DNA of 64,000 bases from Thermoanaerobaculia bacterium (GTDB taxonomy: Bacteria > Acidobacteriota > Thermoanaerobaculia > Multivoradales > Multivoraceae), in assembly GCA_963664405.1 (NCBI GenBank), contig OY761158.1, forward strand, positions 5,696,001 to 5,760,000, given 5' to 3'. Position numbers and translations under genes: made by a program. The notes beneath the pieces are model-generated. The model was not told the DNA's origin, ran no database searches, and saw only the letters and a list, made by a program, of their open reading frames with translations. Below, piece after piece: positions 3,463-19,994 of the stretch; the first letter of the stretch is position 1; every line of letters begins with the position of its first letter.

Positions 3463-3468
3463 GGTGGA

Positions 3469-4095: not shown

Positions 4096-4801
4096 TCTCA
4101 GAAAGGGCCGAGTCGTTCGTTTGCGCAAGGGTGACGATGCCCAGCGCACGACTTACGATGTGGATCCGTTGGATACCCTCCTTCATTATGCCGATCTCGG
4201 AGTCGGGCGCGTTCATGTGGTCGACCTCGATGCGGCGTTCGGCGAATTGCCACAACGCGAGCTGGTCGAGAGACTCGCGGGTCACTCCCTGGCTCCACGC
4301 ATTGAGCTCGGGGGTGGGTTGCGCGACGCGGAGTCGATCGAGTGGGCTTTCGACGCCGGCGTGGAGCGCGCGGTCATAACGTCGATGATCGTCAACGATT
4401 TCGAGCTCTTCGGCGAGCTCGCAGTAGCCTGGCCCGACCGTCTGGTGGCTGCCCTCGATGTTGCGGATGGAGCTCTGCGTTACTCGGGTTGGACGGCGAG
4501 CGCCGAGAGAGATCTCGACGATATTTGCCTCGACCTTGCCCCGTTGCCGCTGGCCGCGGCCCTGGTCACCGACATCTCTCGCGACGGCACTCTCACTGGG
4601 CCCAACGTCGAGCTTCTCTGTGAGGTTGCCGGAAAGGCTTGCGCTCCTGGCATTCTCTCCGGTGGGGTGCGTTCTTTGGACGATCTTCGACAGGCTCGCC
4701 AAGCCGCCGCAGTTGCAGAGGTCGTGGTGGGAAAAGCGCTCTACGATGGCGCGATCGATGCGCGCGAGGCCATGCGGGTGTGTCGCGGGGAGGTCGAATG
4801 A
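4073..4801 (+). CDS. hisA: ProFAR isomerase
   Basis: ATG at 4073 gives [17 protein letters not shown]; motifs [13 protein letters not shown] and [11 protein letters not shown]. Confidence 0.95.
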
Positions 4802-5601
4802 CAGCGGAACCTCGGTCGGCCACCGCCACCGGCCTCACCGCTCGCATCATCCCCTGCCTCGATGTCGCGGCAGGAAGGGTGGTGAAAGGGGTCAACTTCA
4901 AAGACCTGCGCGATCAGGGCGATCCGGCCGACTGCGCTCTTCGATACGCCGAGCAGGGTGCCGACGAGATCGTCTTTCTCGACATTACGGCGGCTCCGGA
5001 GCGGCGACGGACCAACCTCGAGTGGGTCACCCGCACCGCCGAACAGGTGTTTGTACCGTTGAGCGTCGGCGGCGGCGTGCGAGAAGTGGAAGATGGACGC
5101 AAACTGCTGCAAGCGGGAGCCGACAAGGTGGCTGTGAACACCGCGGCGGTAGAGCGCCCTGGTCTACTCTCCGAGCTGGCACGGCGCTTCGGCTCGCAGT
5201 GTGTCGTACTTTCGGTCGATGCCCGCCGGATCGGCGGAGACACGGGATCGCCAGGCTGGGAAGTAGTGACCCAGGGCGGGCGGAAGCCGACTGGGAAGGA
5301 TGCGCTGACCTGGATTCGCGAAGGCGTCGAGCGCGGCGCCGGTGAGATCCTGCTCACCAGCATCGATGCGGACGGCACTCAAGACGGTTACGATCTGGAG
5401 CTCCTGCGCCGTGTCTCGGAGATTGTCTCGGTGCCGGTAGTGGCTTCCGGCGGCGCCGGCACAGTCGCGCATCTCGCCCGTGCTCTGGAGGCGGGATCCT
5501 CGGCGGTGCTCGCCGCTTCGATCTTCCATCAATCTATGTTTACTCCTAACGAGGTGAAGCGCCAGCTCGATGAGATGGGCTTCGCCATGAGGCTTCCATG
5601 A
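4798..5601 (+). CDS. hisF: Imidazole glycerol phosphate synthase, cyclase subunit
   Basis: Motifs [45 protein letters not shown] and AASIFH. Confidence 0.97.
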
Positions 5602-5918
5602 GCGCACCATCTTCGACAGGCATGGACTTGGGTTGGCTTTGGGACACTTTGGAGGAGAGGCGTCGTGAGGGCGATGCTGACAGTTCATATACGGCTCGGC
5701 TGCTCGACTCCGGCCCGGATCGCATCGCCCAGAAGGTTGGCGAAGAGGCGACAGAGACCATCATCGCCGGCCTGAGGATGCGCTTGGACGGTGGGGCGGA
5801 GGAGTTGGTCGGCGAGGCCGCGGATCTGGTGTACCACCTGATGGTCTTTCTGCTCGTCAACGACTTGACCCTGGCTGATGTGGTCGACGAGCTGCAACGG
5901 AGGCATCGAGACCCATGA
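5598..5918 (+). CDS. hisE: Phosphoribosyl-ATP pyrophosphohydrolase (stand-alone, not fused to HisI)
   Basis: Motifs [14 protein letters not shown] and [11 protein letters not shown]. Confidence 0.94.
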
Positions 5919-7402
5919 GCGCGGGCGGCACTTTGGGTCCTCCGGCTGCGGTCGCGTCTTCGCAGAGGGTGCGCACTGCTGTTCCGCACACTCTCGAGTT
6001 CATCGCCGATACTCTTACCCCGGTCGGGGTATACCGACGATTGCGTTCGGCCTCTCCGTACGCTTTTCTGCTCGAGTCGATCACGGGTGGCGAGCAGGTG
6101 TCTCGATTCAGCTTTGTCGGCGCCGGCCCTTCGGTCGTGTGCCGACTGTGGCCGGACCGCCTCGAGATCGAGGAGGGAGGCGAGAGAAGCATCGCAGACG
6201 GGTTACCTCTGGATGCACTGCAAGAATTGCTTGCCGGTATCCGCAGTACCCCTAGCGACATTCCCCTGACCGGGGGGTGGGTCGGCTTTTTCGGCTACGA
6301 CACCATCCGATTGGTCGAGCGACTCCCGAATCGCCCCACCGACCCCTATGGGCTGCCCTATGCGGCATTAGCTCGCTACGACAGCCTTGTAGTTTTCGAC
6401 CATGCCAGACAGCGAGTCGTGGCGTTGGCTAACGAGATCGAGGGCGAGGTGGACGCCGACAGAGCCAGAGCCCGGCTCGGCGAGCTTTCGGATCTGCTCG
6501 TACGTGCCGATGAGAGTGGGGCTGTCGCCATGCCGCCCGCTGGCACGGTGCAGCCGGCGGCGACCCTGCCTCCGACCCTGTCGAGCGAGGAGTACCAAGA
6601 GGCGGTGCGCAAGGCGAAGGCCTATATCCAGGCTGGGGATATCTTTCAGGTGGTCCCGGCAAGGCGTTGGCGCGCGCTGAAGTGTCCGGCACCACTGGAG
6701 GTTTATCGCGCCTTGCGCATGGTGAACCCGAGTCCCTATATGGTGCTACTCGAGACGCCGGAGCTCGCTTTGGTGTCGGGGTCGCCGGAGATGGTAGTGC
6801 GGAAATCGGGGGAAGTGCTCGAGAGTCGTCCGATTGCGGGCACACGGCCTCGTGGTGGGACTCCGGAAGAGGATCACCGCTTGGCGCAGGACCTGCTGGC
6901 GGACGCCAAGGAGAGGGCCGAGCACCTCATGCTCGTCGATCTGCATCGAAACGATCTAGGTCGGGTTGCACAGGCGGCGAGCGTTCATGTGCCCGATTTC
7001 ATGGCGGTTGAGTACTACTCGCATGTCATCCATCTGGTGTCCTCGGTCGAAGCCCGTATTCGGCCGGAGTGCTCTGCCCTCGATGCGCTGCTGGCATCTT
7101 TCCCTGCCGGTACTCTCTCGGGCGCACCGAAGATTCGGGCGATGGAGATCATCGATGAGCTGGAGCCTGAGGCGCGTGGCCCTTACGGTGGTGCCATCGG
7201 CTACTTCTCTTATTCGGGCGATCTAGACACATGCATCACCATACGTACGATCGTGATGGTTGACGGCGAGGCGTCGGTAAGCGCGGGAGCCGGCATCGTC
7301 GCCGACTCCGACCCTGAAACCGAAGTGCTAGAGACGGAGAACAAGGCGGCGGCTCTGCTACAGGCCCTGGGCTTGGCTGGCGCGTTGGAGGAGGAGCGAT
7401 GA
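5915..7402 (+). CDS. trpE: Anthranilate synthase component I
   Basis: Trp-feedback motifs FLLES and NPSPYM; also GDIFQVV, RPIAGT, KERAEHLMLVDL, GTLSGAPK and AGAGIVADS. Confidence 0.96.
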   Translation: MSAGGTLGPPAAVASSQRVRTAVPHTLEFIADTLTPVGVYRRLRSASPYAFLLESITGGEQVSRFSFVGAGPSVVCRLWPDRLEIEEGGERSIADGLPLDALQELLAGIRSTPSDIPLTGGWVGFFGYDTIRLVERLPNRPTDPYGLPYAALARYDSLVVFDHARQRVVALANEIEGEVDADRARARLGELSDLLVRADESGAVAMPPAGTVQPAATLPPTLSSEEYQEAVRKAKAYIQAGDIFQVVPARRWRALKCPAPLEVYRALRMVNPSPYMVLLETPELALVSGSPEMVVRKSGEVLESRPIAGTRPRGGTPEEDHRLAQDLLADAKERAEHLMLVDLHRNDLGRVAQAASVHVPDFMAVEYYSHVIHLVSSVEARIRPECSALDALLASFPAGTLSGAPKIRAMEIIDELEPEARGPYGGAIGYFSYSGDLDTCITIRTIVMVDGEASVSAGAGIVADSDPETEVLETENKAAALLQALGLAGALEEER

Positions 7403-7992
7403 TACTGGTGATCGACAATTATGATTCGTTCACCTACAACCTGGTGCAGCTGCTCCTCGGTCTTGAACAGGAAGTGGTGGTACGGCGCAACGACGTCGCT
7501 TCGGTGCCGGAGTTGTTGGCTCTCGAGCCCGATGCGATCGTGCTTTCGCCAGGGCCGGGCCGGCCGGAGAACGCCGGTATTTGTGTCGACCTGATTCGCT
7601 CCGAGCCGTCCGCCCCTTTGCTCGGAGTCTGTCTCGGCCATCAGGCCTTGGCCCTCGCCTTTGGTGGCGCTATCGAGGCGGCGCCGGTTCTGATGCACGG
7701 CAAGACCTCTCGAGTGCACCATACGGGCACGGGAATCCTCAGCGGTCTGCCCGACCCCTTCGAGGCTACGCGGTACCACAGCCTCCGGGTCGCGGAGGAG
7801 CATCAGCCGGATTGTCTCGAGGTACACGCTCGTGCCGAGGACGATGGCAGCGTGATGGCTATGGCGCACTGTGAGCTTCCCTACTGGGGAGTGCAGTTTC
7901 ATCCCGAGTCGATTCTCACCACGACTGGCGGCCAGCTTCTCGAGCAGTTTCTCGAGCTGTCGCGAGCCCAGACGGTCGAAGCCGGAGGTTGA
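7399..7992 (+). CDS. trpG: Anthranilate synthase component II (glutamine amidotransferase)
   Basis: Motifs IDNYDSFTYNL, SPGPG, GVCLGHQ, RYHSL and QFHPES. Confidence 0.96.
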   Translation: MILVIDNYDSFTYNLVQLLLGLEQEVVVRRNDVASVPELLALEPDAIVLSPGPGRPENAGICVDLIRSEPSAPLLGVCLGHQALALAFGGAIEAAPVLMHGKTSRVHHTGTGILSGLPDPFEATRYHSLRVAEEHQPDCLEVHARAEDDGSVMAMAHCELPYWGVQFHPESILTTTGGQLLEQFLELSRAQTVEAGG

Positions 7993-7997
7993 GGCGC

Positions 7998-9002
7998 ATG
8001 AACGAGCGAGAAGCACTGCAGCGTTGGATTGACGGCGAGGATCTCGATCGCGGCGAGGTCGAGGGGCTCTTCGGCCGTCTTATGGACGGTGCTCTGTCCG
8101 ATGTCTACAAGGCCGCCCTCTTGGCCGCTTTGGCCGGCAAAGGAGAGAGCGTCGCGGAGATCACGGGCGCCGCCGCGGCGATGCGGAGCCGGGTCACTCC
8201 GATACCGCATCATCGTGATCGTCTGGTCGACACCTGTGGAACGGGTGGCGATGGCTCCGGCAGCTTCAACATCTCGACCGCGGCTGCGCTGGTCGCGGCC
8301 GGCGCCGGCGTCGAGATCGCGAAGCATGGCAATCGGTCGGTGTCGTCGCAGTGTGGCTCCGCCGATGTGCTCGAGCAACTGGGCGTGAAAGTTCAGGTGT
8401 CGCCGGAGGAGGCCGGGCTGGCTCTCGATACGATTGGTGTCGCGTTTCTCTTTGCGCCGGGGTTACACCCGGCGATGCGAGAGGTGATGCCGGTGCGCCG
8501 CGAGCTAGGAGTGCGCACCGTGTTCAATCTCGTGGCACCGCTCACCAACCCGGCCGGAGCGCGCCGTCAGGTTCTAGGGGTTCCGGAACGACGATGGGTG
8601 TCGACGCATGCCGCGGTGCTTGCCGACCTCGGCTGTGACCATGCGCTGGTGGTGCATGGTGACGGGCTCGACGAGATCACCACCACGGGGGAGACTCACG
8701 TTGCTGAAGTCCGAGGACCCGACGTCGGGACGACCACTATCCGCCCCGAGGAGTTTGGAATTCGCCCGGTGTCGAAGGCGGATCTGGCCGGAGGCAGCGC
8801 CGAGGTCAATGCCGCCTCCATGATGAAGATCCTGGAGGGAGAAGAGGGTCCGCTGGCCGATATAAGCGCGCTCAACGCAGGCGCCGCGATCTACGTAGGA
8901 GGCTTGGCGGATGATCTCGCGAGTGGTGTCGATCTGGCCCGCGAGTGCCTCGCCTCCGGGGCCGCCCTCGCCAAACTGGAAGAGCTCAAGGGAATCGGAT
9001 GA
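7998..9002 (+). CDS. trpD: Anthranilate phosphoribosyltransferase
   Basis: Motifs DTCGTGGDG, NISTA, KHGNRSVSS, GSAD, RTVFN and HGDGLDE. ATG at 7998; an alternative TTG lies at 7989. Confidence 0.96.
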   Translation: MNEREALQRWIDGEDLDRGEVEGLFGRLMDGALSDVYKAALLAALAGKGESVAEITGAAAAMRSRVTPIPHHRDRLVDTCGTGGDGSGSFNISTAAALVAAGAGVEIAKHGNRSVSSQCGSADVLEQLGVKVQVSPEEAGLALDTIGVAFLFAPGLHPAMREVMPVRRELGVRTVFNLVAPLTNPAGARRQVLGVPERRWVSTHAAVLADLGCDHALVVHGDGLDEITTTGETHVAEVRGPDVGTTTIRPEEFGIRPVSKADLAGGSAEVNAASMMKILEGEEGPLADISALNAGAAIYVGGLADDLASGVDLARECLASGAALAKLEELKGIG

Positions 9003-9802
9003 TGACTCCGTCGGCGCCTCCAGACATCCTCTTGCGTATCGCGGCCCGTCGCCGCGTACGTTACGGATTGGCGCCCGGCGAGTACGCGGAGCCCGCCACT
9101 CCTGGGCCCGAGGGTAGCGATGTCCACAACGCCTTCTGTGCAGCCTTGGCCGATCGCCGCGGTCGCGCGGTGATTGCAGAGGTGAAGATGGGCTCGCCGA
9201 AGTTGGGCTCCTTGGTGGGGACCTTCGATCCCTTGGAGCAGGCGCGCACTTACGCCCGAAGCGGCGCCGCGGCCCTCTCGGTCGTGGTCGAGCCGGACTT
9301 CTTTCACGGTAGCTACGATTTGCTCCGCCAATGCCAGCGCGCCAGCGGCCTACCGGCGATCGCCAAGGACTTCGTGGTGTGCGGGCGACAGCTGGCCGAG
9401 GCGAAGGAGGCCGGAGCGAGCGCTGTCCTGCTGATCGCCGCTCTCTACGAGGCCGAGACCCTGCGAGCCTTCGCGGGCGAGGCCAGGCGGCTGGGTTTGG
9501 TTCCGCTGGTCGAGACCCATGATCCCTCTGACTTGGCCAAACTCGGCGGCTCGCGCTGGGAGCTGGTGGGAGTGAACAACCGAGACCTGCGCACTTTCCA
9601 AGTCGACCTCGACCGCTCGATCGGCCTGCTCGACAGGCTTCCCGCGGGTGCGCTGAAGGTCGCGGAGAGCGGTATCCACAGCTCGTGCGATGTGGAACGG
9701 CTCCGGTCGGCCGGCTTTGATGCCTTTCTCATCGGCGAGTCTCTGGTTACAGCGCAAGATCCGGCGGCGAAGTTGATGGAGCTCATGGGAGAGCCGGTAT
9801 GA
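8999..9802 (+). CDS. trpC: Indole-3-glycerol phosphate synthase
   Basis: Motifs IAEVKMGSP, ALSV, KDF, LVE, GVNNRDL, VAESGI and LIGESL. Confidence 0.94.
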   Translation: MMTPSAPPDILLRIAARRRVRYGLAPGEYAEPATPGPEGSDVHNAFCAALADRRGRAVIAEVKMGSPKLGSLVGTFDPLEQARTYARSGAAALSVVVEPDFFHGSYDLLRQCQRASGLPAIAKDFVVCGRQLAEAKEAGASAVLLIAALYEAETLRAFAGEARRLGLVPLVETHDPSDLAKLGGSRWELVGVNNRDLRTFQVDLDRSIGLLDRLPAGALKVAESGIHSSCDVERLRSAGFDAFLIGESLVTAQDPAAKLMELMGEPV

Positions 9803-10431
9803 GTCGCCCCAAGGTCAAGATCTGCGGCCTGACGACGGTCGAGGATGTCGAGACCGCGCTTGCTCTAGGAGCCGACTTCGTCGGCCTCAATTTCTACGAG
9901 CCGAGCCCGCGTTACGTGGACCTGGGGACTGCACGTCGGCTCCGCGACACTGTTGGTGACCGAGCGACGGTGGTGGGTGTCTTTGTGAATTCGACTTCGG
10001 CCGGGGAGATCGCCGATGATGTCGGCCTCGATCTCTTGCAGTTCCATGGTGACGAGGGCCCCGCGTTCGTAGCGGAGTTCGCCGAGCGAGCGATCAAGGT
10101 CTTCCGAGTTGGCAAGCACTTTGATGCCGCGCAGCTCGAAGACTATGCGGCCACGTGGGGCTACCTGTTCGACAATGGCAACGTCTCCGCGCGCGGAGGA
10201 AGCGGTTTGCCATGGTCCTGGGAACTGGTCAGCGCGGTTGCGACCGACAAACCGATTTTCATTGCCGGCGGTGTCTCTCCCCAGAACGTGGGCTCCCTCT
10301 GTGCCCGGGTTCATCCGTGGGGCATCGACGTGTGCTCGGGGGTCGAAGCCTCCAAGGGGCGCAAGGATCCCGCTCTTCTGCAACGACTCTTCCAGGAGAT
10401 TGAAGATGGCGAAGCACAAGCAGCTTCCTGA
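9799..10431 (+). CDS. trpF: Phosphoribosylanthranilate isomerase
   Basis: Motifs VKICGLT, SPRYV, VGVF, QFHGDE, GGSG, IAGG and DVCSGVE. Confidence 0.95.
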
Positions 10432-11686
10432 TCCGCAGGGGCATTTTGGCCCCTACGGCGGTCGCTACGTTCCCGAAACTCTGATGGGGCCACTCGAGGA
10501 GCTCGCCCGAGCCTATGCAAAGGCCCAGAAGAACCGCAGCTTCAAGCGGCGGCTGGACGAGCTTCTCGAGCACTACGCTGGTAGACCGACGCCGCTCTAT
10601 TTCGCCGAACAGCTTTCGAAGCACCTAGGTGGAGCCAGGATCTGGCTCAAGCGAGAGGATCTTCTCCACACCGGGGCGCACAAGATCAACAATACCCTCG
10701 GCCAGGCGTTGCTGACCAAGGAGATGGGCAAGAGCCGAGTGATCGCCGAGACCGGAGCGGGTCAGCACGGTGTTGCGACGGCAGCGGCGGCGGCCCTCCT
10801 CGACCTCGAATGCACGGTCTACATGGGTGCCGAAGACATGCGTCGGCAACGTCTCAATGTGGATCGGATGCGGCTGATGGGGGCCGAGGTGGTTGCGGTC
10901 GATTCCGGGAGTCGCACTTTGAAAGATGCCATCAACGAGGCGATGCGCGACTGGGTTAGCTCGGTCAGAACGACTCATTACATCCTCGGCTCTGTGCTCG
11001 GTCCCGAGCCTTATCCTCGTATGGTGCGTGACTTTCACAAGGTCATTGGGGAAGAGGCACGCGCACAGCTGAAGCGGCAGGCGGGCCGGCCGGACCCCGA
11101 CATCGCGATCGCCTGCGTCGGCGGCGGCTCGAACTCGATCGGTCTGTTCTGGGCCTTCCTCGACCGGCCGAGCGTCCGGTTGGTGGGTGTCGAGGCCGGG
11201 GGAAGGGGCGAAGATCTGGGCGAGCACGCGGCCCGCTTCTCGGGCGGTCGTCTCGGCGTCCTGCATGGCACTCGCACTTTGGTGCTTCAAGACGAAGACG
11301 GCCAGGTCTCGACGACCCACTCCGTCTCCGCGGGCTTGGACTACCCGGCCGTGGGACCGGAACATGTCTGGCTCCATGATCAAGAGCGTATCGAGTATGT
11401 CCACGCCTCCGATGCCGAAGCGATCGAGGCTTTTCACCTGCTCTCCTCGAAGGAAGGTATTCTTCCCGCCCTCGAGAGCTCTCATGCGATCGCGGAAGTG
11501 ATGAAGCATGCGCCGAGGCTCGGGGCGGATCGCATCATTCTGGTGAATCTCTCGGGCCGTGGTGACAAAGATGTGGAGTCTGTGAACGAGTTCGACGAGG
11601 CTCACCGGCCGCCGGTCCTGAGCGACAACGTGACGGTCCACCCCGCGGCACGGGCTGCGGCCGAGGGCGAGGAGAACCAGTCATGA
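10406..11686 (+). CDS. trpB: Tryptophan synthase beta chain
   Basis: ATG at 10406. Motifs [49 protein letters not shown] and NLSGRGDKD. Confidence 0.98.
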
Positions 11687-12555
11687 GAGCTCGCCGCCGC
11701 TTTAGCGCCGCAGTCCGAGGCCACCAGAGCGACGAAATTGCAGCGGTCTTTTCCCGCTGCCGAAAGGAGAGGCGGGCTGCCTTCATCCCCTATATCTGTG
11801 CCGGTGACCCGTCGCTCGAGCGAACCGTCGATCTGCTCGAGGCTCTGGTCGCCGGCGGCGCTGACTTGATCGAGCTCGGCGTTCCTTTCTCGGACCCGAT
11901 CGCCGACGGACCCACGATCCAACGCGCGACCACACGGGCGCTGGCCGCAGGCACGACGCTTTCTGCGATCCTACAGATCGTTGCCGAGAGTCGGCCCAGG
12001 CTCGGAGTCCCGATCGTGCTTTTCAGCTACTTCAATCCGATCCACAATCGCGGGGTCGCCACTTTCGCCGAGCAGGCCGCGTCTTCTGGAGTGGACGGAT
12101 TGCTGTGCGTGGACCTCCCTCCAGAGGAAGCCGTCGCGGAGGCGGAGCCTGCTTTGGTCGAGAGAGGTATCGATCTGATCTTTCTTCTGGCCCCCACCAG
12201 CACTCCGATGCGGATCAAGATCGTCGCCAAGGCCAGTCGAGGGTTTGTCTACTACGTTGCTCGCACTGGGGTAACCGGAGAGCGGGAGCGACTCCCCGAG
12301 GAGTTGGTCTCCGAGCTCGCGCGACTACGCAAAATCGTCAAGCTCCCCGTCGCGGTCGGCTTTGGGATTTCGAGCGCGGAGCAGGTGGCGCAGGTCGCGA
12401 GCGTGGCCGACGGGGTGGTGGTCGGATCTGCTTTGGTCCGTCTAATCGAAGAGCAGGCCGCAAGCGAGAATTTGGCGAGCATCCTCGAAACGCGAACTAG
12501 AGAGCTTTCCGAGGCGGTCAGAGAGGGCTGGATGAGAGGCGCTGAGAGCCAATGA
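11683..12555 (+). CDS. trpA: Tryptophan synthase alpha chain
   Basis: Motifs [35 protein letters not shown] and DGVVVGSA. Confidence 0.97.
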
Positions 12556-12893
12556 GTTCCGAGGAGGACAGGCCGAGCGCCGCCGCCGACTCCGACGATG
12601 ACGCGGTCGATCGAGCTCTTGCCCGTTTGCGTGAGAACATCGATCAGGTGGACGTGGTTCTGGTCAAGCTGCTCAATCAGCGGGCTGAGTGGGCGCTCGA
12701 GATCGGTGATGTGAAAAAGGCCGCGGGGCTCGCGATCTATCAGCCGGGGAGGGAGAAGAAGGTGCATGAGCGCGTGCAGTCCGAGAACCGAGGGCCGCTG
12801 GACGCCCCGGCGATGAGGCGCCTCTTCGAGCGCATCATCGACGAGGCCCGCAGTCTCGAGCGTGTCGCGAGCGGAGAGGGGGAAGAACAGTGA
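12552..12893 (+). CDS. Chorismate mutase, AroQ type (monofunctional)
   Basis: LRENIDQVD...LLNQR...IGDVK...PGRE helical AroQ signature; lies downstream of trpA. Confidence 0.9.
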   Translation: MSSEEDRPSAAADSDDDAVDRALARLRENIDQVDVVLVKLLNQRAEWALEIGDVKKAAGLAIYQPGREKKVHERVQSENRGPLDAPAMRRLFERIIDEARSLERVASGEGEEQ

Positions 12894-13903
12894 TTGTGGT
12901 GATGAAGCCGCGGGTGGACGAGTCGGCGGTGGAGAGGGTGATCGACAGGCTGGTGAAGGCCGGCTGCGACATTCACCGCTCTACCGGTGCCGAGCGCACA
13001 ATTGTCGGTGCGATAGGTGTCACCGCGGAGATGGATCTCTCCGACTACGAGATTCTGCCGGGAGTCGAGAGCGTGCTTCGCGTCTCCACGCCTTACAATC
13101 TGGTCAGCCGGGCTTTCAAGCCCGAAGGCTCGAGGATCGAGATCGGCCAGGTCACGATTGGCGGAAACGAGGTCGTTGCGATAGCCGGACCCGGGCAGGT
13201 CGAATCTAGAGAACAGATCCGTAGCACTGCTGAGCAGGTCGCGCGCGCCGGCGCCAGGATTCTACGCGCTTCGGCCTTCACCCCGCGCTCCCGTCCCTAC
13301 GCCTTTCAGGGGCTCGGGGAGCAGGGCCTGCAGTGGTTGCGCGAGGCCGCCGACGAGTTCGGCCTGCTGGTCGCGAGCGAGGTGATGGCGCCCACCCATG
13401 TCGACACCGTGGCCGGTTATGCCCATCTGCTGCTGGTGGGTGGCCGTCATATGCAGAATCACGCCCTGCTCAGAGAGCTCGGAGGGGCGCGGCGTCCGGT
13501 GATTCTGAAACGCGGGATCGCCGCGACCATGGAAGACTGGCTGCTTGCGGCCGAGTACGTAGCCGCCGCCGGTGAGGACCGGATCGTGCTCTGTGAGCGG
13601 GGGATCCGCACCTTCGAGACTGCGACCCGTTACACCCTGGATCTGTCGGTCATTCCTGCGATTCACGAGATGAGTCATCTGCCAGTGATCGCCGACCCGA
13701 GCTACGGCACGGGCCTACGGGACAAGGTCGCGCCGATGGCCCGCGCCGCGGTTGCCGCAGGTGCCGACGGGCTCTTGATCGAGGTTCATTGCGACGCCGA
13801 CGAGGCCCGCTCCGACGCAGCACAGACCCTCTACCCCGACGATTTTCAGCGCCTGATGGACCAGCTTCGTATTATCGTACCGGCTCTCGGTCGGTCGGTC
13901 TGA
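12890..13903 (+). CDS. Type I-beta DAH7P synthase-like protein with N-terminal ACT domain; degenerate active site
   Basis: AroF-like throughout (FQGLG, LKRG, CERGIRTFE, IEVH, SD..Q), but canonical IAGPC reads IAGPG, KPRTS reads TPRSR, and DPSH reads DPSY. Confidence 0.9.
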   Translation: MIVVMKPRVDESAVERVIDRLVKAGCDIHRSTGAERTIVGAIGVTAEMDLSDYEILPGVESVLRVSTPYNLVSRAFKPEGSRIEIGQVTIGGNEVVAIAGPGQVESREQIRSTAEQVARAGARILRASAFTPRSRPYAFQGLGEQGLQWLREAADEFGLLVASEVMAPTHVDTVAGYAHLLLVGGRHMQNHALLRELGGARRPVILKRGIAATMEDWLLAAEYVAAAGEDRIVLCERGIRTFETATRYTLDLSVIPAIHEMSHLPVIADPSYGTGLRDKVAPMARAAVAAGADGLLIEVHCDADEARSDAAQTLYPDDFQRLMDQLRIIVPALGRSV

Positions 13904-13942
13904 CCACCGAGCAAGTGGCTCGAGCAAAAGGGGGACGACGCG

Positions 13943-14803
13943 ATGCTTAGCAGATTTGCGCCGATTTTGGCTGCCTTGGTGGTTGTGAGCTGGGCGGGGG
14001 AGCTCTTCGCTCAGGAAGAGGAGGAGAAGGACACAGGTTGGTTCGATACCGCGGAGCTTTCTCTGGTTGCGACCGGTGGTAACACCGAGGCCAACACCTT
14101 CAGTTTCAAGAATGCGTTGCTTCGTGCCTGGAGCGAGTCCGAGCTCTTGATCGAGGCTGGAGGCTTGCGCGCCGAGACGACCAACTTCACCGTGAGGGCG
14201 ATCGGCCCTTCCGCCACCGATTTTGTGAGTCTCGAAGAGTCGATGACTGAGCTCACCGCGGAGCGCTACTATTTTCGTAGCAAGTACAGCCACGAGTTTT
14301 CCGAGCTCTTGTCCTGGTTCGCGGCGGCGGGCTGGGAGCGGAACGAGTTTGCCGGTATCTCTGGCCGGTCTTCTGTGGGTGGTGGTGTCGCACAGCGGTG
14401 GTTCGACCATGACAAATCCAAATTCCGGACCGATTCCGGTCTGTTCTACACCAAGGAGCAGACCCTCGACGGCGAGCCCGACGATGACTTCGTGGCTCTG
14501 CGTCTCGCTTTGGAGTACCGACGCGAGCTGACCGGGACCACTACTTTTGACAGCGTCTTCGCCCTCGACGAGAACCTCGAGACCACTTCGGACTATCGCG
14601 TCGATACCACCAACTCGATCTCGGTGAGCATGACCGAGGCCCTCGCCCTCAAGCTCAGTTTTCAGCTGCTCTTCGATAACGAGCCGGCCTTCGTTCTGGT
14701 CGAGAGAGAGTTCCCCGAGGGTGTCTTCAGCGGAGACATGGTGGCGGTCGAGTTGGACGAGATCGACACGCTCACGACGCTCGCGTTGGTTGTGAAGTTC
14801 TGA
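13943..14803 (+). CDS. DUF481/YdiY-like outer-membrane beta-barrel protein
   Basis: Signal peptide, W..TAELSLVATGGNTE motif, amphipathic beta strands and C-terminal Phe (LVVKF). Confidence 0.75.
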   Translation: MLSRFAPILAALVVVSWAGELFAQEEEEKDTGWFDTAELSLVATGGNTEANTFSFKNALLRAWSESELLIEAGGLRAETTNFTVRAIGPSATDFVSLEESMTELTAERYYFRSKYSHEFSELLSWFAAAGWERNEFAGISGRSSVGGGVAQRWFDHDKSKFRTDSGLFYTKEQTLDGEPDDDFVALRLALEYRRELTGTTTFDSVFALDENLETTSDYRVDTTNSISVSMTEALALKLSFQLLFDNEPAFVLVEREFPEGVFSGDMVAVELDEIDTLTTLALVVKF

Positions 14804-14874: not shown

Positions 14875-17800
14875 ATGGGCTGTGCGGCATCACTGGCGTT
14901 GCTTGCGGCGGTTTGCGTCCTGGTCGGCCCTTGGGTCCTGGCGGTGTGGGCTTGGAGGCGTCAGGGAGTCAACCGCGGGCGGCTGGACGAGATCGAGCTC
15001 GACTTGGGAAGTGTCGCGGCTCGTCTGAGCGGGCGTCTGGAAGAGATCGAGCGGAAGCTCTCCGATGGGGCAGGATCTGCCAGTTCCGAAGCGCCGGTCT
15101 TGCCTCGAGAGGGGCTCGCCACTTCGCCGGTGGAGCCTGCTGCTGCGCCGCTCGCCTCGGAACCGCCAGGGCCGCCCCCTGAGGCCCCGCGGCCTTCAGA
15201 GCTTCCTGAATCACCAAAGGAGCTCCCAGAGCCGCCCGCGCCTCGCCAAGAGGCACCCCAGCCACCGGGTGACTCATCCCCAACACGCACGATCGAGTGG
15301 GAACGCTGGATCGGAGTCCGCGGTGCCGCGGTGCTGGGTGCGGTGGTCTTGGCTCTGGCCGGAATTCTCTTCCTGCGCTATTCGATCGAGCGTGGACTGA
15401 TCCCGCCGCCAGTTCGGGTTGCATTCGGAATTTTCGCTGGTATCACCTGCATACTGGGGTCCGAACGGCTTCGACGTCGACACTACGTGATCAATGCCAA
15501 CGCCCTTGCCGGTGCTGGTGTGGTCTTGCTCTACGCGGCACTGTGGGCCGCCCGAGCTCTCTACGAAATGATCGGCGCTGGGACCGGCTTCGCGCTGATG
15601 GTTTTGGTGACGGCGGCTTGCGGTGCCTTATCGTGGCGCTACGGGTCGCTACTGATTGCCGTCCTCGGGCTCATCGGCGGCTTCAGTACGCCGCTTCTGA
15701 TGTCCTCGGCGAGTCCCAACCCGATCGGACTTTTTGGCTACATCTTGCTCTTGGACCTCGGCCTTCTAGTTCTCGCCGGTCGCCGAGGATGGTCGGTCCT
15801 CTTTCCGCTCGCTTTGGTGGGGACGGTCCTTTATCAAGTGTTGTGGACATCGTCTTCAATGGGCCCCGAGCGCGCCATTCTCGGCCTTGTCATCGTCGGA
15901 GCCTTCGGCCTTCTCTTCGGTCTCGCTGGTTTATTGAAGAGCAAGCGGGACGATGTTGGAGCGAGTGGCGCCACAGTCTGGCGAAGCTCCGAAACGGCCG
16001 GCCTGCTCTTCTCGTTCGCCTTGGGTCTCAATTTCGCGGCCCGCGCCGAGCTCGGTCTGCATCTGTACCCGATAGGTGCGCTGCTGGTCGTCCTCAGCGC
16101 TGCGGCGCAGTGGATCGGACGAGCCCACGGAACCCAGCTCTTGAGTCTGGCCGCGGCCGCTGCGGATATCGCTGTTTTATCGGTGTGGGCCTGGCGGAGC
16201 CAATGGACTGTGCCGCTGGCGTGGGAATTGGTTCTGGTCAGTGTGGCCCTCGCGTTGGTTTTTCATGTCGGCTTCGAGGCCGATTTGCGGAAGAGTCGCG
16301 TCGGCGACGGCGTGGGTCGGGCTTTCGAGCTCGCTCCCGTTGTGGCCTCGGCCGGCCTATTAGTGCTCGTGGTCTTTTTCTCGCTGGCGTCCAACATCGT
16401 GCTGTGGCCGTGGCTGGCGGGCGTAGCGGCGCTGGCGACTCTCCTCGTGCGCCACTCCAGAGTGCCGGGTCGGGCGCCGCTCCAGGCCGTAGCGGCGGTC
16501 GGCTTTGCTACTACCTGCGCTTCCTTCTATGTGCTTGAGAAGACGAGCTCTTTCTTCCCGCACCCCGCCTTGTTCTTCGCGATGGCCACCGCCGGAGGTC
16601 TGGTCTTTCAGGTCTTGCCGGTGGTGCTACGAGGCCAGAGGGTGTGCTATTGGGGCAATGTCGGAGGGGCGCTCTGCGCGGGGATTCTGCTGTTGAGCTT
16701 GGTACCTGATTCTGGCTCGAGCCTTCCTGCGCCGGCGTTTCTCGGCTTGAGCTTGTTTTTCGGTCTTTTGGTCACGCTCTCGGTGACTCGTATGCCTTCG
16801 GCGGTCGGCTACCTGCTCGCAATGGCGCTGGTGGCCTCGGTGCATACTTTATGGGCCGCAGACGAGCCCGCGGCCGGCACGGCTCTCTTGGGGCTCATCG
16901 TCGTGGTCGTTGCCGCGGCCTTCTTTACCTTCTGGCCGTCCTTTGTCGCGGGCCACTTCGAGTCGTGGGGGCTGGTTTGGAAGGTGTCGGCCTTGGCTGG
17001 GCCTGCCTGGTTCTTCGTTGCCAAGGATCTCTTCGGGCTTCGTTTCGGTGGTTCTGCCATCGGGGTCGTTCCCTTGGTCCTTGGCGCCCTCTCTTTGAGC
17101 GCAGCTTTCCGTGGACGGTCGCTGTGGTCCCGGGATGAGTCGCTGCTGACGTCCAACTTGGCCTGGTACTCAGCTGTGGCCCTAGGCTTCGTCAGCGTTG
17201 CTGTGCCGCTGCAGCTCGACCGGGAGTGGATTACCTTGGGGTGGGCTCTCGAGGCGGCTGCGGTGACGGCTCTTTGGCGCCGCCTCGACCATGCGGGTCT
17301 CAAGTACTTTGCCCTGGCGCTGCTCGGCGCAGTCTCGGTGCGCCTCATCGCCAACCCCGCACTGTTGGGTTACCACGAGCGATCGGGATGGCCGGTACTC
17401 AACTGGTTGGCGTATACCTACCTGGTACCGGTGGCGGCACTGCTGGTCGTTGCTTACCTCCTACGCACAGTCGAGATCGAGCGGGCGCGGGGTTGGGAAG
17501 ATGCGCTTTATCGGCGAGGCCACTCTTGGTGGTCCTCGATCTGTGGGCTCGCGGCGATCCTGCTGACTTTTGTGTGGATCAATCTGACTATCGTCGATGC
17601 TTTTTCCAGCGGCCCGCGCCTGGGTCTCTCTCTCGATCGGCTTCCGGCTCGCGATCTGACCCTTTCTCTAGCCTGGGTTGTTTATGCTCTGGTCTTGCTC
17701 ACTCTGGGCGTCATCAAGGACGCCGGGGCGTTGCGCTGGCTCAGCCTCGGGTTCTTGGTGCTCTCGATCGGCAAGGTCTTTCTGTACGATCTAGGCGAGC

Positions 17801-17919
17801 TCCGTGATCTCTATCTGGTTGCGTCCCTGGTGGGGCTCGCGTTTTCGCTCATCGGGGTCTCTCTGGCGTACCAGAGATTTGTTTTTCGGCGCAGTGTCGG
17901 TGGGGAGGATTCAGCATGA
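14875..17919 (+). CDS. DUF2339-family polytopic membrane protein
   Basis: Pro-rich linker, then EWERWIG..AAVLG...GILFLRYSIERGLI, GLIGGFSTPLL and C-terminal KVFLYDL; roughly 25 hydrophobic segments. Confidence 0.8.
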   Translation: MGCAASLALLAAVCVLVGPWVLAVWAWRRQGVNRGRLDEIELDLGSVAARLSGRLEEIERKLSDGAGSASSEAPVLPREGLATSPVEPAAAPLASEPPGPPPEAPRPSELPESPKELPEPPAPRQEAPQPPGDSSPTRTIEWERWIGVRGAAVLGAVVLALAGILFLRYSIERGLIPPPVRVAFGIFAGITCILGSERLRRRHYVINANALAGAGVVLLYAALWAARALYEMIGAGTGFALMVLVTAACGALSWRYGSLLIAVLGLIGGFSTPLLMSSASPNPIGLFGYILLLDLGLLVLAGRRGWSVLFPLALVGTVLYQVLWTSSSMGPERAILGLVIVGAFGLLFGLAGLLKSKRDDVGASGATVWRSSETAGLLFSFALGLNFAARAELGLHLYPIGALLVVLSAAAQWIGRAHGTQLLSLAAAAADIAVLSVWAWRSQWTVPLAWELVLVSVALALVFHVGFEADLRKSRVGDGVGRAFELAPVVASAGLLVLVVFFSLASNIVLWPWLAGVAALATLLVRHSRVPGRAPLQAVAAVGFATTCASFYVLEKTSSFFPHPALFFAMATAGGLVFQVLPVVLRGQRVCYWGNVGGALCAGILLLSLVPDSGSSLPAPAFLGLSLFFGLLVTLSVTRMPSAVGYLLAMALVASVHTLWAADEPAAGTALLGLIVVVVAAAFFTFWPSFVAGHFESWGLVWKVSALAGPAWFFVAKDLFGLRFGGSAIGVVPLVLGALSLSAAFRGRSLWSRDESLLTSNLAWYSAVALGFVSVAVPLQLDREWITLGWALEAAAVTALWRRLDHAGLKYFALALLGAVSVRLIANPALLGYHERSGWPVLNWLAYTYLVPVAALLVVAYLLRTVEIERARGWEDALYRRGHSWWSSICGLAAILLTFVWINLTIVDAFSSGPRLGLSLDRLPARDLTLSLAWVVYALVLLTLGVIKDAGALRWLSLGFLVLSIGKVFLYDLGELRDLYLVASLVGLAFSLIGVSLAYQRFVFRRSVGGEDSA

Positions 17920-19994
17920 GATCTCGTGGCAGGCCCGGAGTGTTGTTCCTAAGCACACTACTCGCCCTTGTCTATGGGCGGAGTGTGGCTCAGCCGCCCG
18001 ACCTGGCTAGTCTCTTTCCACATCAAGCCGAGATCGAAGCCCCATCCGGTCTCGCCCGCCTGGAGCTGCCGGCCGAGGTGCTTGCAGAGTGTCGTGCGGA
18101 TCTTTCCGATCTCAGGCTCTTTGACAGTCGAGGCAACGAGGTTGCCTACGTCGTCGACAATGGTATTGAAGACGGAGTCGACCTGGAACTACGGCAGAGT
18201 GTGGGGCTGGTGTTGCTCGAGGCAGATCGCCAGACGGTTGCGCGAGGCCGCGCTCCGCGGTTGCTCGGAGAGAGATACCTTTTGGGAGTACCTCTCGACC
18301 TCCTCGAGGCCGGTGACTGGGATCTTGTTTTCGACATCGAAAGAGCTGACTTCGTGACCAAGGTCGATTTGACCGCGCTCTTCGATCGGGGCCGCGACCG
18401 GCCGCTGGTGGAGGGTGGGTCGATTTTTCGCATGGCCGGCTCTGGCCGAGAGAAGGTGCGCCTACCTCTGCCACCGCTCACCGCGTCGCGACTTCGTCTT
18501 TCCCTCGAGACCGAAGGTGGAAGTTTTCTCGAACCGCGAATGATGCTCGAGCGCCGCAGCAGGATCGAGGCACGGGAGCCCCTCGTGGTCACTCTTCGTC
18601 AGAGCTCGAGAAGAGATTTCGGGGGTTCGACTACGATCGAGCTCGAGCGCCCGCGCGGCCTCGTTCCCGAGCGTCTTCGTTTCGGCACCGCGACGCAAGC
18701 CTTCGAAAGAAGAGTCGAGGTCTGGGATCAAGGTAGCGGGGCGCGAGACGAGGTGATGGGCGAGGGAGAGATCTTTCGCCTCCAGTCTGCTGCGACGGTG
18801 GAGGGTTTGGAGCTGGCGCTGGCACCGGCGCTGGGCGAAGTGTTGCGAGTGGTGATTGAGAATCTCGACAGTCCCCCACTCGAGGAGCTCAGCTTCGAGG
18901 CCGTCCTGGGCAGTCCGGTGTTGGTCTTCGCGTTGCCCGCAGAGGAGTCCGGGCGATCTCGGGGACTGCTGCGTTTCGGTGGCGCACGAGCCCATCGCCC
19001 TCGATATGACCTCGCTCACCTGCGACCCGGACTTCCGGCACAGGGTGCCGAAGCCGTGCTGGGGGAGGTCCTCTACGACCCGATGCGCCTACCCTCAGCC
19101 AGACTGGGCGAGGTGGTCTCGAATCCAAGTTACAAGGTGGAGGCGGCGCTGGGGTGGGCGATGCGGCCAGGGGCCGAGCTCGATCCCCGTCTCTATTCCC
19201 ACCGTCGTGAGCTGGTCGCCCGCCCATCGCGAGAAGGCCTCTCACGACTTCGTTTGGGGCTGGAGGATCTGGCCGCGGCGCAACCGAGCCTTGCTGATCT
19301 GCGCCTCTTGGGGCCCAGCGACCAGCAGTGGGCTTTTCTGCTCGAGAGCGGTTCCTCGCGACTCGATCTTCCGCTCGGGCTTTCAGCTTCTTCGGTAGAG
19401 GAGGGGACGACGCACTACGAGCTGGTCCCACCAGCGGTTCCGGCGAAGTTGGATGAGATCGTGATCGACTCGGCGACCGAGTTCTTCGACCGGAGCTTCG
19501 AGCTGCTGGCTCTGCTCGAGGGTGATGCCGAGGCGACGTTGGCGCGGGGACGACTGGTTAGGCAGGCCGGAGATCCACGTGCGGTGCGGGTCGCCTTCGA
19601 GCCGCAACGAGTCGTCAGCCTTTCTCTCCGTATCGTCGACGGCGACGACGCGCCACTCCAGGGCCTGGTTGTTGGCGGGAGATTCCCGGTTCCAGATCTC
19701 TACTTCGTGGCGCCCGAGGGGCGCTATTCGCTCTTGCTTGGCAACCCCGAGGACGCGGCTCCGCGTTACGAGTTGGCTCGAGTGTCGGAGGTTGTACTGG
19801 CGGTAGCGAGCGGCGAGGCGGAGGCGGGTCCGCTCGAAGAGAACGAGCGCTTCAGCAAGCGACTACGCCTCGCGAGCGGCGCCTTCTGGCAGCAGGCCCT
19901 GCTCTGGCTCGCGATCGGCGTAGTGGTTGTCGTCTTGGTTGTTCTGACGCTGCGTCTGGTGCGTCAGGGACCGTCCCAGGACAGCGGCGAGTAG
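17916..19994 (+). CDS. Exported DUF3999-like protein with internal duplication and C-terminal membrane anchor
   Basis: Signal peptide; two similar units (DLSDLRLFD...PRYDL and SLADLRLLG...PRYEL); C-terminal TM helix; ATGA overlap with the DUF2339 gene. Confidence 0.65.
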   Translation: MRSRGRPGVLFLSTLLALVYGRSVAQPPDLASLFPHQAEIEAPSGLARLELPAEVLAECRADLSDLRLFDSRGNEVAYVVDNGIEDGVDLELRQSVGLVLLEADRQTVARGRAPRLLGERYLLGVPLDLLEAGDWDLVFDIERADFVTKVDLTALFDRGRDRPLVEGGSIFRMAGSGREKVRLPLPPLTASRLRLSLETEGGSFLEPRMMLERRSRIEAREPLVVTLRQSSRRDFGGSTTIELERPRGLVPERLRFGTATQAFERRVEVWDQGSGARDEVMGEGEIFRLQSAATVEGLELALAPALGEVLRVVIENLDSPPLEELSFEAVLGSPVLVFALPAEESGRSRGLLRFGGARAHRPRYDLAHLRPGLPAQGAEAVLGEVLYDPMRLPSARLGEVVSNPSYKVEAALGWAMRPGAELDPRLYSHRRELVARPSREGLSRLRLGLEDLAAAQPSLADLRLLGPSDQQWAFLLESGSSRLDLPLGLSASSVEEGTTHYELVPPAVPAKLDEIVIDSATEFFDRSFELLALLEGDAEATLARGRLVRQAGDPRAVRVAFEPQRVVSLSLRIVDGDDAPLQGLVVGGRFPVPDLYFVAPEGRYSLLLGNPEDAAPRYELARVSEVVLAVASGEAEAGPLEENERFSKRLRLASGAFWQQALLWLAIGVVVVVLVVLTLRLVRQGPSQDSGE

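Follow-up and report, generated by a model that had tools for sequence, protein, structure and literature searches.

What keeps a gene for a DAH7P synthase (DAH7PS) homolog at the end of a trp operon once the catalytic residues of its product are gone? Textbooks place the control of aromatic amino-acid synthesis at DAH7PS and chorismate mutase (CM), whose assemblies are models for the evolution of allostery. In the window, by which we mean the whole analysed stretch of 64,000 nucleotides, a trp operon ends with aroQ, encoding a CM, and, as the last gene, with one for a DAH7PS-like protein (Table 1). A first interpretation from the DNA letters alone (the sequence-only reading) had taken this protein for a probable catalytically dead DAH7PS that may sense Phe and Tyr and regulate the overlapping CM or an active paralog, or may have a new activity. 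In our judgement there is an even chance that it is a pseudoenzyme kept as a ligand-sensing partner of the CM; we infer the loss of activity and the sensing, and the binding is predicted by a complex model.

Table 1. Position of the trp operon, the two genes at its end and the relevant codons and domains in the window.
Feature	Position	Strand	Basis
trpE-trpG-trpD-trpC-trpF-trpB-trpA operon	5915..12555	+	Pfam match per ORF; ORF ends overlap or abut
aroQ, AroQ-class chorismate mutase (CM), 113 aa	12552..12893	+	PF01817, TIGR01807; translationally coupled on both sides
Type I-beta DAH7PS homolog without catalytic residues (candidate pseudoenzyme), 337 aa	12890..13903	+	Profiles, alignment, dN/dS
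N-terminal ferredoxin-like/ACT regulatory domain, aa 1-66	12890..13087	+	PF18152; H29 and S31 kept, F26 replaced by C
Codon 102 GGG (Gly) for metal-ligand Cys	13193..13195	+	1rzm alignment, family alignment, codon reading
TPRSR for KPRSS: T131 (ACC, 13280-13282) for PEP-binding Lys, R135 gained	13280..13294	+	Alignments, codon reading; roles after an excerpt of PMC6362186
Codon 182 CTG (Leu) for PEP-binding Gln	13433..13435	+	Family alignment, codon reading; role after an excerpt of PMC6362186
Codon 272 TAC (Tyr) for metal-ligand His	13703..13705	+	1rzm alignment, family alignment, codon reading
C-terminal helix aa 318-337 (...FQRLMDQLRIIVPALGRSV), predicted docking site of the CM dimer	13841..13900	+	Complex model; conserved motif

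Loss of catalytic residues in the last gene of the operon

The start and stop codons of the last genes overlap, as ATGA between trpA and the CM gene and as GTGA between the CM gene and the DAH7PS-like gene. A scan of positions 5300-14100 for terminators and promoters gave counts at the level of shuffled sequence. The DAH7PS-like protein is composed of a DAHP_snth_FXD domain (residues 1-66; PF18152, 73.5 bits) and a PF00793 domain (residues 87-323; 215 bits), and its full-length match to the NCBIfam profile NF006421 (421 bits, curated cut-off 335) places it among the type I-beta DAH7PS. In the profile searches no family besides DAH7PS and KDO8PS scored well. With the Thermotoga maritima enzyme (1rzm) phmmer gave a gapless alignment of residues 1-335 on 1-335 (E = 1.8e-93), and the T. 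maritima residue numbering used in the sequence-only reading therefore holds.

Direct codon reading together with the alignments bears out the three substitutions first noticed in the letters: the T. maritima residues Cys102, Lys131 and His272 are Gly, Thr and Tyr. The roles of the metal ligands and PEP-binding residues are taken here from an excerpt of PMC6362186. Two of the four metal ligands (Cys102 and His272) are thus lost and two (Glu298, GAG; Asp309, GAC) are retained, and both the KPRT Lys131 and the PEP-binding Gln182 are replaced, by Thr and Leu. Besides Leu182, the replacements by Ser128, Arg135 and His187 are additions to the earlier list. All other PEP and E4P ligands (R126, R133, R186, K207 and R237) are present. 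At positions 102, 131, 182 and 272 all of 141 live relatives have Cys, Lys, Gln and His, and all 14 members of the clade described below have other residues, so that the residue loss is more than chance or error. Having lost half of its four metal ligands as well as the KPRT lysine and the PEP-binding glutamine, the protein is probably a type I-beta ACT-DAH7PS that would be unable to condense PEP with E4P.

The regulatory domain is preserved, as the sequence-only reading had stated. His29 (CAC) and Ser31 (TCT), which we take to be the Tyr-binding residues of the ACT domain, are kept in the window and invariant in the family alignment (A4); a literature search on His29 and Ser31 in DAH7PS found no paper with these residues. 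Residue 26 is Cys in 14 of 14 clade members versus Phe in 93% of the live enzymes. Catalytic residues are missing from a protein whose fold and full length are kept, with a chain pLDDT of 89-90 in the complex model.

Conservation, selection and independent losses

The same set of replaced residues marks out 14 sequences as a monophyletic clade (SH-aLRT 99) with members in three genera and several metagenomes. All of these sequences have a full-length frame, and the signature is still kept where identity within the clade falls to 68%. A scan of named genomes returned relatives that were all live, with identities of at most 66%, and a metagenome scan contributed three usable loci. Estimated by NG86, dN/dS within the clade is 0.07-0.25 (21 pairs, many of them saturated with dS > 1), and the four pairs with dS < 0.6 gave 0.07-0.13. 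Replacement of Cys102, Lys131 and His272 thus marks a conserved clade under purifying selection across species and beside a CM gene, a check that the sequence-only reading had proposed. In the ACT domain, dN/dS is 0.143 in this dead clade versus 0.202 in live relatives. At low divergence, the dead clade has a ratio of about 0.10, roughly twice the 0.04-0.055 of live enzymes, and it is therefore under some relaxation.

Contigs of four sequencing runs from four studies cover the stretch. Two of them match it exactly, and the window's DNA may stem from these; the other two depart from the window at 21 of 1352 and at 14 of 838 bases, with no difference in codons 102, 131 and 272. Because the signature defines a well-supported clade, dN/dS is low and strain variants retain the three codons, the residue loss is neither sequencing error nor decay. 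That the gene is decaying, or an artefact of sequencing, and has no function would suit the doubled dN/dS at low divergence and the long branch of a copy in another genome, but is hardly credible in view of the full-length frames, the selection estimates, the retention of the signature down to 68% identity and the agreement of independent contigs.

In at least two other genomes, catalytic residues were lost independently. The type I-beta copy of genome G300 carries C102G, K131R, R133H, Q182L, H272R, E298D and D309E, and that of genome G341 carries C102S, K131Q and H272Q. Both copies are found in a trpBA-CM context, and a type II DAH7PS is present as well in each of the two genomes. The G300 copy stands on a long branch (0.78), and among 30 family genomes no relative of it with more than 54% identity was found.

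Within the dead clade, the former catalytic positions vary (Thr or Ala at 131; Tyr, Phe or Asp at 272; Leu, Ile or Val at 182), and new pocket residues are fixed: Arg135 in 14/14 members, Ser128 and His187 in 13/14 each. These fixed residues may point to a pocket with a new ligand or a new chemistry and not to a mere scaffold. The retained pocket residues are invariant at 8 of 9 positions versus 71 of 103 other formerly conserved barrel positions, a difference that we judge not distinguishable from the barrel background (rough binomial about 0.18). Potentially, the barrel is neofunctionalised: its pocket would bind a different substrate or effector and serve a new role in catalysis or sensing, one not primarily related to CM. 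The fixed residues, the retention of R126, R133, R186, K207, E298 and D309, and a barrel dN/dS of 0.150 that lies near the 0.124 of live enzymes would be in line with this. Nevertheless, we consider it unlikely, as positions 131, 272 and 182 vary in the manner of released constraint and not of a new catalytic set, the dead lineages of G300 and G341 have different replacements, and DAH7PS and KDO8PS are the only families with good scores.

Type II DAH7PS and the neighbouring chorismate mutase

The sequence-only reading had called for a search for a second, intact DAH7PS, and the genome of the window does possess one, of type II (624 bits; full-length alignment to 5uxm, E = 7e-135). In a genome-wide profile search no other type I-beta DAH7PS was found, and the sole other PF00793 gene encodes KDO8PS. 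Regulation of an active paralog through hetero-oligomers, which had been suggested as an alternative to control of the CM, was therefore rejected for a type I-beta paralog. Type II DAH7PS was detected in 33 of 41 relatives; seven of the eight without it carry a live type I-beta enzyme, and the eighth (G008) is a member of the dead clade with a 90% complete genome. The best explanation is that DAH7P synthesis in the genome of the window is carried by the type II enzyme.

The presence of the type II enzyme also argues against the idea that the protein is still a DAH7P synthase with an altered, for example metal-independent, mechanism. Metal-independent KDO8PS are known in the same superfamily, residues E298, D309, K207, R186, R237 and R133 are kept, and the NCBIfam subfamily score exceeds its cut-off. 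However, four residues that are fully conserved in the 141 live enzymes, among them the lysine of KPRT and the glutamine that binds PEP (roles as given in an excerpt of PMC6362186), were lost together and their replacements vary within the clade, which makes such a mechanism highly improbable.

The aroQ product matches PF01817 (82.6 bits) and TIGR01807 (71.2 bits, cut-off 69.55), and in the PDB it comes closest to CM domains that are fused to type I-beta DAH7PS (5j6f, 2d8d, 5gmu, 3nvt). Five residues (R44, K55, R67, E68 and E93) do not vary among 37 CMs, and R27 hardly does; we assume their mapping to the residues of Escherichia coli CM. The window's CM retains the invariant ones, so that both the profile and the conserved active-site Arg, Lys and Glu assign it to the AroQ class. 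Its dN/dS is about 0.32. A second CM in the genome is part of the P-protein, and the aroQ CM is therefore not essential for Phe synthesis; an AroH-type CM was not found in the genome.

The order trpB-trpA-CM-I-beta is conserved in 7/7 loci of the dead clade. The coupling to CM that had been read from the gene overlap stands in part: aroQ does overlap the DAH7PS-like gene, but this neighbourhood is shared with live enzymes: the order trpB-trpA-aroQ-aroF is ancestral across the Acidobacteriota, where the type I-beta enzyme is normally live. In 26 relatives the trpA locus lacks the type I-beta gene and also the CM gene, although one deletion could remove both of these adjacent genes. A motif in the C-terminal helix and an adjacent CM gene are both present in 83 of 125 loci and both absent in 30, with the CM alone in eight and the motif alone in four. 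By this count the motif goes with the adjacent CM gene, with 12 exceptions among 125 loci that are not phylogenetically independent.

A multimer model, as the sequence-only reading had suggested, supported binding of the CM with an ipSAE of 0.82 in three runs, versus 0.00 for the best control; of the pairs in its alignment 6 were dead and 31 live, so that the value may reflect family likeness and speaks for the family and not for the dead pair specifically. Of 157 solved complexes 116 attained this mark, as did 2 of 215 mismatched pairs; our job, with two copies of each chain, differed from this calibration, and the model may draw on memory of solved complexes, as fused CM-DAH7PS structures exist (3nvt, 5j6f). 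The runs share at least 95% of their contacts, with a partner pLDDT of at least 79. In the model the CM dimer sits on the conserved C-terminal helix (residues 320, 324, 327-328, 331-332, 334 and 336), and six of these eight contact residues (D324, R327, I328, P331, A332 and G334) are invariant in 12/12 non-redundant clade members. The DAH7PS-like protein is thus predicted to bind the CM physically.

The same model and the C-terminal motif point away from a non-catalytic regulator that acts elsewhere, such as on the type II DAH7PS, on anthranilate synthase or on expression of the trp operon, to which the CM would be a co-inherited neighbour. Such a role would fit the location of the gene within the trp operon and the well conserved ACT domain, and the second CM and the type II DAH7PS would need control. 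However, the CM and type I-beta genes are present or absent together and nothing points to another partner, and we regard this role as distinctly unlikely.

Proposed function and comparison with known systems

We favour the pseudoenzyme that is kept as a partner of the CM. The type II DAH7PS would supply DAH7P, and the protein would be retained for an ancestral acidobacterial complex with the CM from the overlapping upstream gene, in which the conserved C-terminal helix is predicted to dock on helix 1 of the CM dimer. The intact ACT domain, and perhaps also the remodelled barrel pocket, would bind effectors and thereby tune the CM where the pathway branches at chorismate; the pair would be co-expressed with the trp genes. 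Phe and Tyr may be the ligands through which the CM would be controlled. One may speculate further that, on three or more independent occasions in Acidobacteriota, a catalytic DAH7PS subunit became an allosteric receptor devoted to CM. In this role reversal the ACT domain would read Tyr or Phe, the metal-free barrel pocket, rebuilt with R135, H187 and S128 beside the Arg and Lys residues still present, would read a metabolite of the pathway (for example PEP, E4P, DAH7P, chorismate or prephenate), and the two would set the split between Trp and Phe/Tyr when the trp operon is expressed. This extension is doubtful.

If true, the favoured reading would provide a natural example of an enzyme subunit that became a purely regulatory one, for which the live ancestor state can be identified among related genomes, a type II isozyme has taken over and independent repeats exist, and it is directly testable with two small soluble proteins. 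It also touches annotation: such genes pass curated DAH7PS cut-offs and would therefore be counted as functional DAH7PS in metabolic reconstructions. A literature search for DAH7PS as a pseudoenzyme or as an inactive or regulatory subunit found no such protein described, the sole near case being a 2005 remark on a fusion in the gamma-proteobacterium Shewanella. In that fusion, called 'bizarre' at the time, a degenerate type I-beta DAH7PS module is physically joined to an AroQ CM (excerpt of PMC1173090). It differs in being joined to a P-protein, and no function is known to have been proposed for it.

Compared with type I-beta DAH7PS of the T. maritima kind (1rzm, 3pg9), the window's protein has equal length, the same domain order and a gapless alignment, and keeps H29, S31, E298, D309, K207, R186 and R237. 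In contrast to that enzyme, it has neither the Cys and His ligands nor the KPRT lysine and PEP-binding glutamine, its gene follows that of a CM within a trp operon, and it is probably no enzyme. Live acidobacterial trpA-aroQ-aroF pairs (L038, L041, L150) share the gene order, the C-terminal LRII.PA.GR helix and 55-61% identity, whereas theirs retain all catalytic residues; they represent the direct ancestor state of the dead pair. A literature search found no description of this live pair.

In Mycobacterium tuberculosis and Corynebacterium glutamicum, a small AroQ CM is controlled by a bound DAH7PS that carries amino-acid sensing sites. The non-covalent complexes of these species (2w19, 2w1a, 5ckv, 5hud) resemble our proposal in that a small AroQ CM would be under the control of a DAH7PS. 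However, their partner is an active type II enzyme, whereas here it is a dead type I-beta protein with an ACT domain, and the interface predicted here is the C-terminal helix. The window's CM is closest to the CM domains of CM-fused type I-beta DAH7PS (Geobacillus, 5j6f; Listeria, 3nvt; Prevotella nigrescens, PniDAH7PS), and in PniDAH7PS the DAH7PS moiety allosterically activates the CM (excerpt of PMC8408635). In contrast to the pair described here, these fusions are single chains with both activities live and with no ACT domain.

Catalytic residues and operon context of the I-beta homolog

The window's 337-aa type I-beta DAH7PS homolog combines an N-terminal ferredoxin-like/ACT domain (PF18152, residues 1-66) with a DAHP_synth_1 barrel, and scores 421 bits against an NCBIfam subfamily model, above the cut-off of 335. 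With phmmer it aligns to T. maritima DAH7PS (1rzm) without a gap from 1 to 335 and therefore the residue numbers coincide, as the sequence-only reading had assumed. Cys102, Lys131 and His272 are indeed replaced by Gly, Thr and Tyr (codons GGG, ACC and TAC), and H29, S31, E298 and D309 are retained as claimed; R126, R133, R186, K207 and R237 are also still present. In a comparison of 141 relatives with canonical residues ("live") and 14 members of the window's clade, which share its lost catalytic residues ("dead clade"), 14 positions reach 90% conservation or more among the live sequences but are replaced in the clade. Seven of these lie in known ligand motifs (C102G, G128S, K131T/A, S135R, Q182L/I/V, N187H and H272Y/F/D). 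A passage on DAH7PS names C, H, E and D as metal ligands, R126, K131, Q182, R186, K207 and R237 as PEP ligands, and R133, T134 and D309 as E4P ligands (PMC6362186). By the roles given there, the replacements remove C102 and H272, two of the four metal ligands, as well as K131 and Q182, which bind PEP. Judged from these residues, the window's protein very probably no longer makes DAH7P.

In the window, hisD-hisC-hisB are followed by two ORFs lacking Pfam matches and a compact trp operon. Four-base overlaps join trpA to the AroQ chorismate mutase (CM) gene (ATGA) and CM to the I-beta homolog (GTGA). The two ORFs may be spurious or unknown genes, the DNA being 63% G+C.

Coordinates of the features discussed (window positions unless a genome and contig are named)
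Feature	Position	Strand	Remarks
ORF	3459-4379	+	306 aa; between hisB and trpE; no Pfam match at E 1e-5
ORF	4458-5345	+	295 aa; between hisB and trpE; no Pfam match at E 1e-5
trpE	starts 5915	+	then trpG, trpD, trpC, trpF, trpB, trpA in operon order
trpA	11683-12555	+	directly before CM
AroQ CM	12552-12893	+	113 aa
Type I-beta DAH7PS homolog	12890-13903	+	337 aa, after CM
DUF481 protein	13943-14803	+	3' of the I-beta homolog
DUF2339 membrane protein	14875-17919	+	1014 aa; strong AT skew (-0.45) at 16001-18000 falls within the gene
Weak DUF3999 match	17916-19994	+	
P-protein (CM-PDT-ACT)	G000:C1:1843746-1844978 (L119:1393-2625)		410 aa; window's own genome
I-beta homolog, L182 = L186 = L214	G300:C15:15742-16764		trpB-trpA-CM context
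I-beta homolog, L204	G341:C1:2573086-2574093		trpB-trpA-CM context; C102S, K131Q, H272Q
I-beta homolog, L202	G359:C6:4949-5956		trp operon; C102S only

Conservation of the dead clade and losses in other lineages

The signature is common to homologs at 68-99% identity (P0001-P0010), and canonical residues are found from 67% identity down. A quick LG+G4 tree with 90 rows recovers the 14 clade members as a monophyletic group (SH-aLRT 99, stem 0.2); their sister P0011 carries K131R and H272Q and looks like an intermediate state. Within the clade dN/dS is 0.07-0.25 (NG86, 21 pairs), with values of 0.07, 0.11, 0.12 and 0.13 where dS is below 0.6 (four pairs), many other pairs being saturated (dS above 1). 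The suggestion that the signature marks a conserved clade under purifying selection is thus borne out. For live enzymes, median dN/dS is 0.04-0.06 where identity is 85-100%, and at lower identity 0.12-0.20; set against these medians, the window's clade is somewhat relaxed yet clearly constrained. For the ACT domain, dN/dS is 0.143 in the clade versus 0.202 in live enzymes, and for the barrel 0.150 versus 0.124. Codons 102, 131 and 272 are unchanged across four runs from four studies covering the genes, in agreement with the earlier view that the substitutions are not typical indel sequencing errors. Two of the four run contigs are identical to the window and may be its source; the other two show 21 differences in 1352 bases and 14 in 838, and variants inside the I-beta gene comprise 11 synonymous and 6 non-synonymous changes. 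Run X7, labelled seawater metagenome, contains a strain with about 98% identity in the compared stretch of 12552-13903, and other runs with a small share of this stretch are labelled marine or marine sediment. We consider it highly likely that the window's protein is nevertheless functional.

A trp-linked I-beta homolog was also found in G300, a genome of another family (f89), where trpB-trpA-CM precede an open 342-aa frame with C102G, K131R, R133H, Q182L, H272R, E298D and D309E. This homolog shares 43% identity with the window's protein and its best match, at 55%, is a live Solibacteraceae-type enzyme; by sequence, it qualifies as a second, independent I-beta homolog lacking catalytic residues. 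Its branch is long (0.78), and among 30 family genomes none has a relative above 54% identity. Canonical residues occur in 17 of 19 other f89 members, and two further f89 genomes, G341 and G359, carry substituted copies (table). A type II enzyme is present in 4/4 f89 genomes tested, and the PF00793 search, made in G300, G341 and G359, shows a second I-beta-like gene in each. Partial losses occur near the window's clade in the metagenome proteins P0044, P0045, P0046, P0016, P0055 and P0060; these and P0011 (61-67% identity) have each lost one or two residues (K131R or K131N, C102G, H272Q). Convergence on a new active site could be considered, but the replacement residues differ from lineage to lineage and therefore loss of catalysis fits better.

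Probable source of DAH7P and inherited gene order

The window's genome (single contig, 6.78 Mb) was searched for a second, intact DAH7PS, as the sequence-only reading had proposed, and one type II enzyme was found (PF01474, 624 bits). It aligns full-length to P. aeruginosa 5uxm (E 7e-135), and the GGDC, KPRS, DPMHGN and DPRLN stretches, which we take to be motifs of type II DAH7PS, are identical or near-identical. Besides the I-beta homolog, PF00793 matches just one gene, a KDO8PS-like ORF of 278 aa adjoining a KpsF-like gene. Type II is present in 33 of 41 relatives from the same family and order; these include 29 genomes without any I-beta enzyme and G007, with a live-looking I-beta fragment. 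Seven of the eight lacking type II carry a live I-beta enzyme (about 47% identity); the remaining one, G008, belongs to the dead clade and its genome is 90% complete. In a sample of 301 genomes of the phylum, an I-beta homolog occurs in 253 and type II in 41, with three genomes flagged as unpublished counted in these tallies only.

The order trpB-trpA-CM-I-beta is found in each of the seven dead-clade loci, namely in G000, G001, G013, G008 and three metagenome contigs. Live enzymes, too, usually sit in this order, both in named Acidobacteriota MAGs and in the phylum sample. Of the 125 loci that have 600 or more upstream bases, 91 show a CM gene at most 400 bases upstream of I-beta. CM adjacency is therefore inherited and not special to the dead protein. 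The interpretation given in the sequence-only reading is partly supported, by the lost catalytic residues, the conserved clade, the intact type II enzyme and a predicted complex with CM. A related arrangement, aroG or aroH straight after trpA, is described for three Sargasso Sea contigs in part of an earlier report (PMC2395257). From 30 trpA loci of relatives, neither a CM nor an I-beta gene lies downstream of trpA in the 26 outside the dead clade (about 1.5 kb; less than 400 bases in two loci), so that the two genes are present together or absent together.

The window's CM looks intact: across 37 sequences R44, K55, R67, E68 and E93 do not vary and R27 hardly does, and dN/dS is about 0.32, variable tails counted in. 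A second CM of the genome resides in the P-protein, and no AroH was found in the genome.

Predicted complex with CM and known systems

A single complex prediction, with each chain entered twice, used custom alignments of 37 matched rows, of which 6 were dead pairs and 31 live ones. ipSAE was 0.82 in 3/3 runs, and the best of three controls scored 0.00; of 157 solved complexes 116 attain this mark, as do 2 of 215 mismatched pairs, rough counts for a job unlike the tool's calibration. Contacts agree at least 95% between runs and partner pLDDT is 79-80. The model could stem, through memory, from solved fused CM-DAH7PS structures; the best PDB relatives of the window's CM are CM domains fused to I-beta DAH7PS (Geobacillus, Thermus, Bacillus, Listeria). 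The predicted interface pairs the C-terminal helix of the I-beta homolog (320, 324, 327-328, 331-332, 334, 336) with one face of CM helix 1 (25, 29, 32-33, 35-36, 39-40, 43). D324, R327, I328, P331, A332 and G334 are invariant in 12/12 non-redundant clade members. A C-terminal motif (R/K/H at 327, I/M/L at 328, P at 331, A at 332) and an adjacent CM occur together in 83 of 125 loci, with neither in 30, CM only in 8 and motif only in 4, a supporting pattern and no test, as the loci are kin and the CM-less group comes from a handful of lineages. All six dead-clade CMs (the window's, L005-L007, L034 and L036) display R25, N29, V36, K39 and Q43 on helix 1, and CMs adjoining live enzymes mostly R29, K36, E39 and E43, which suggests that the contact face was retuned in the dead clade.

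The best-supported reading is that an ancestral acidobacterial ACT-DAH7PS would already have acted in complex with a separately encoded CM. Type II would then have taken over DAH7P synthesis, and most lineages would have deleted both CM and I-beta genes; the window's clade would instead have retained the pair with its catalytic site released, the protein becoming a putative effector-binding partner of CM. The newly fixed pocket residues R135, S128 and H187 and the ACT-domain C26 would be compatible with a new ligand or, with lower probability, a new reaction. This hypothesis is testable with two small proteins.

Precedents for a DAH7PS moiety controlling CM are the M. tuberculosis and C. glutamicum complexes and the P. 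nigrescens DAH7PS-CM. For the latter, a passage describes CM as activated by DAH7PS site occupancy (PMC8408635). An excerpt on Shewanella mentions an aroAI-beta 'pseudogene' fused to aroQ-pheA, termed 'bizarre' (PMC1173090). A literature search among papers available without subscription found nothing relevant on DAH7PS (DAHP synthase) as a pseudoenzyme, as a regulatory subunit or as catalytically inactive. Regulatory DAH7PS-CM assemblies are a known kind, as are regulators that are pseudoenzymes, and the window's pair would be a variant of these.
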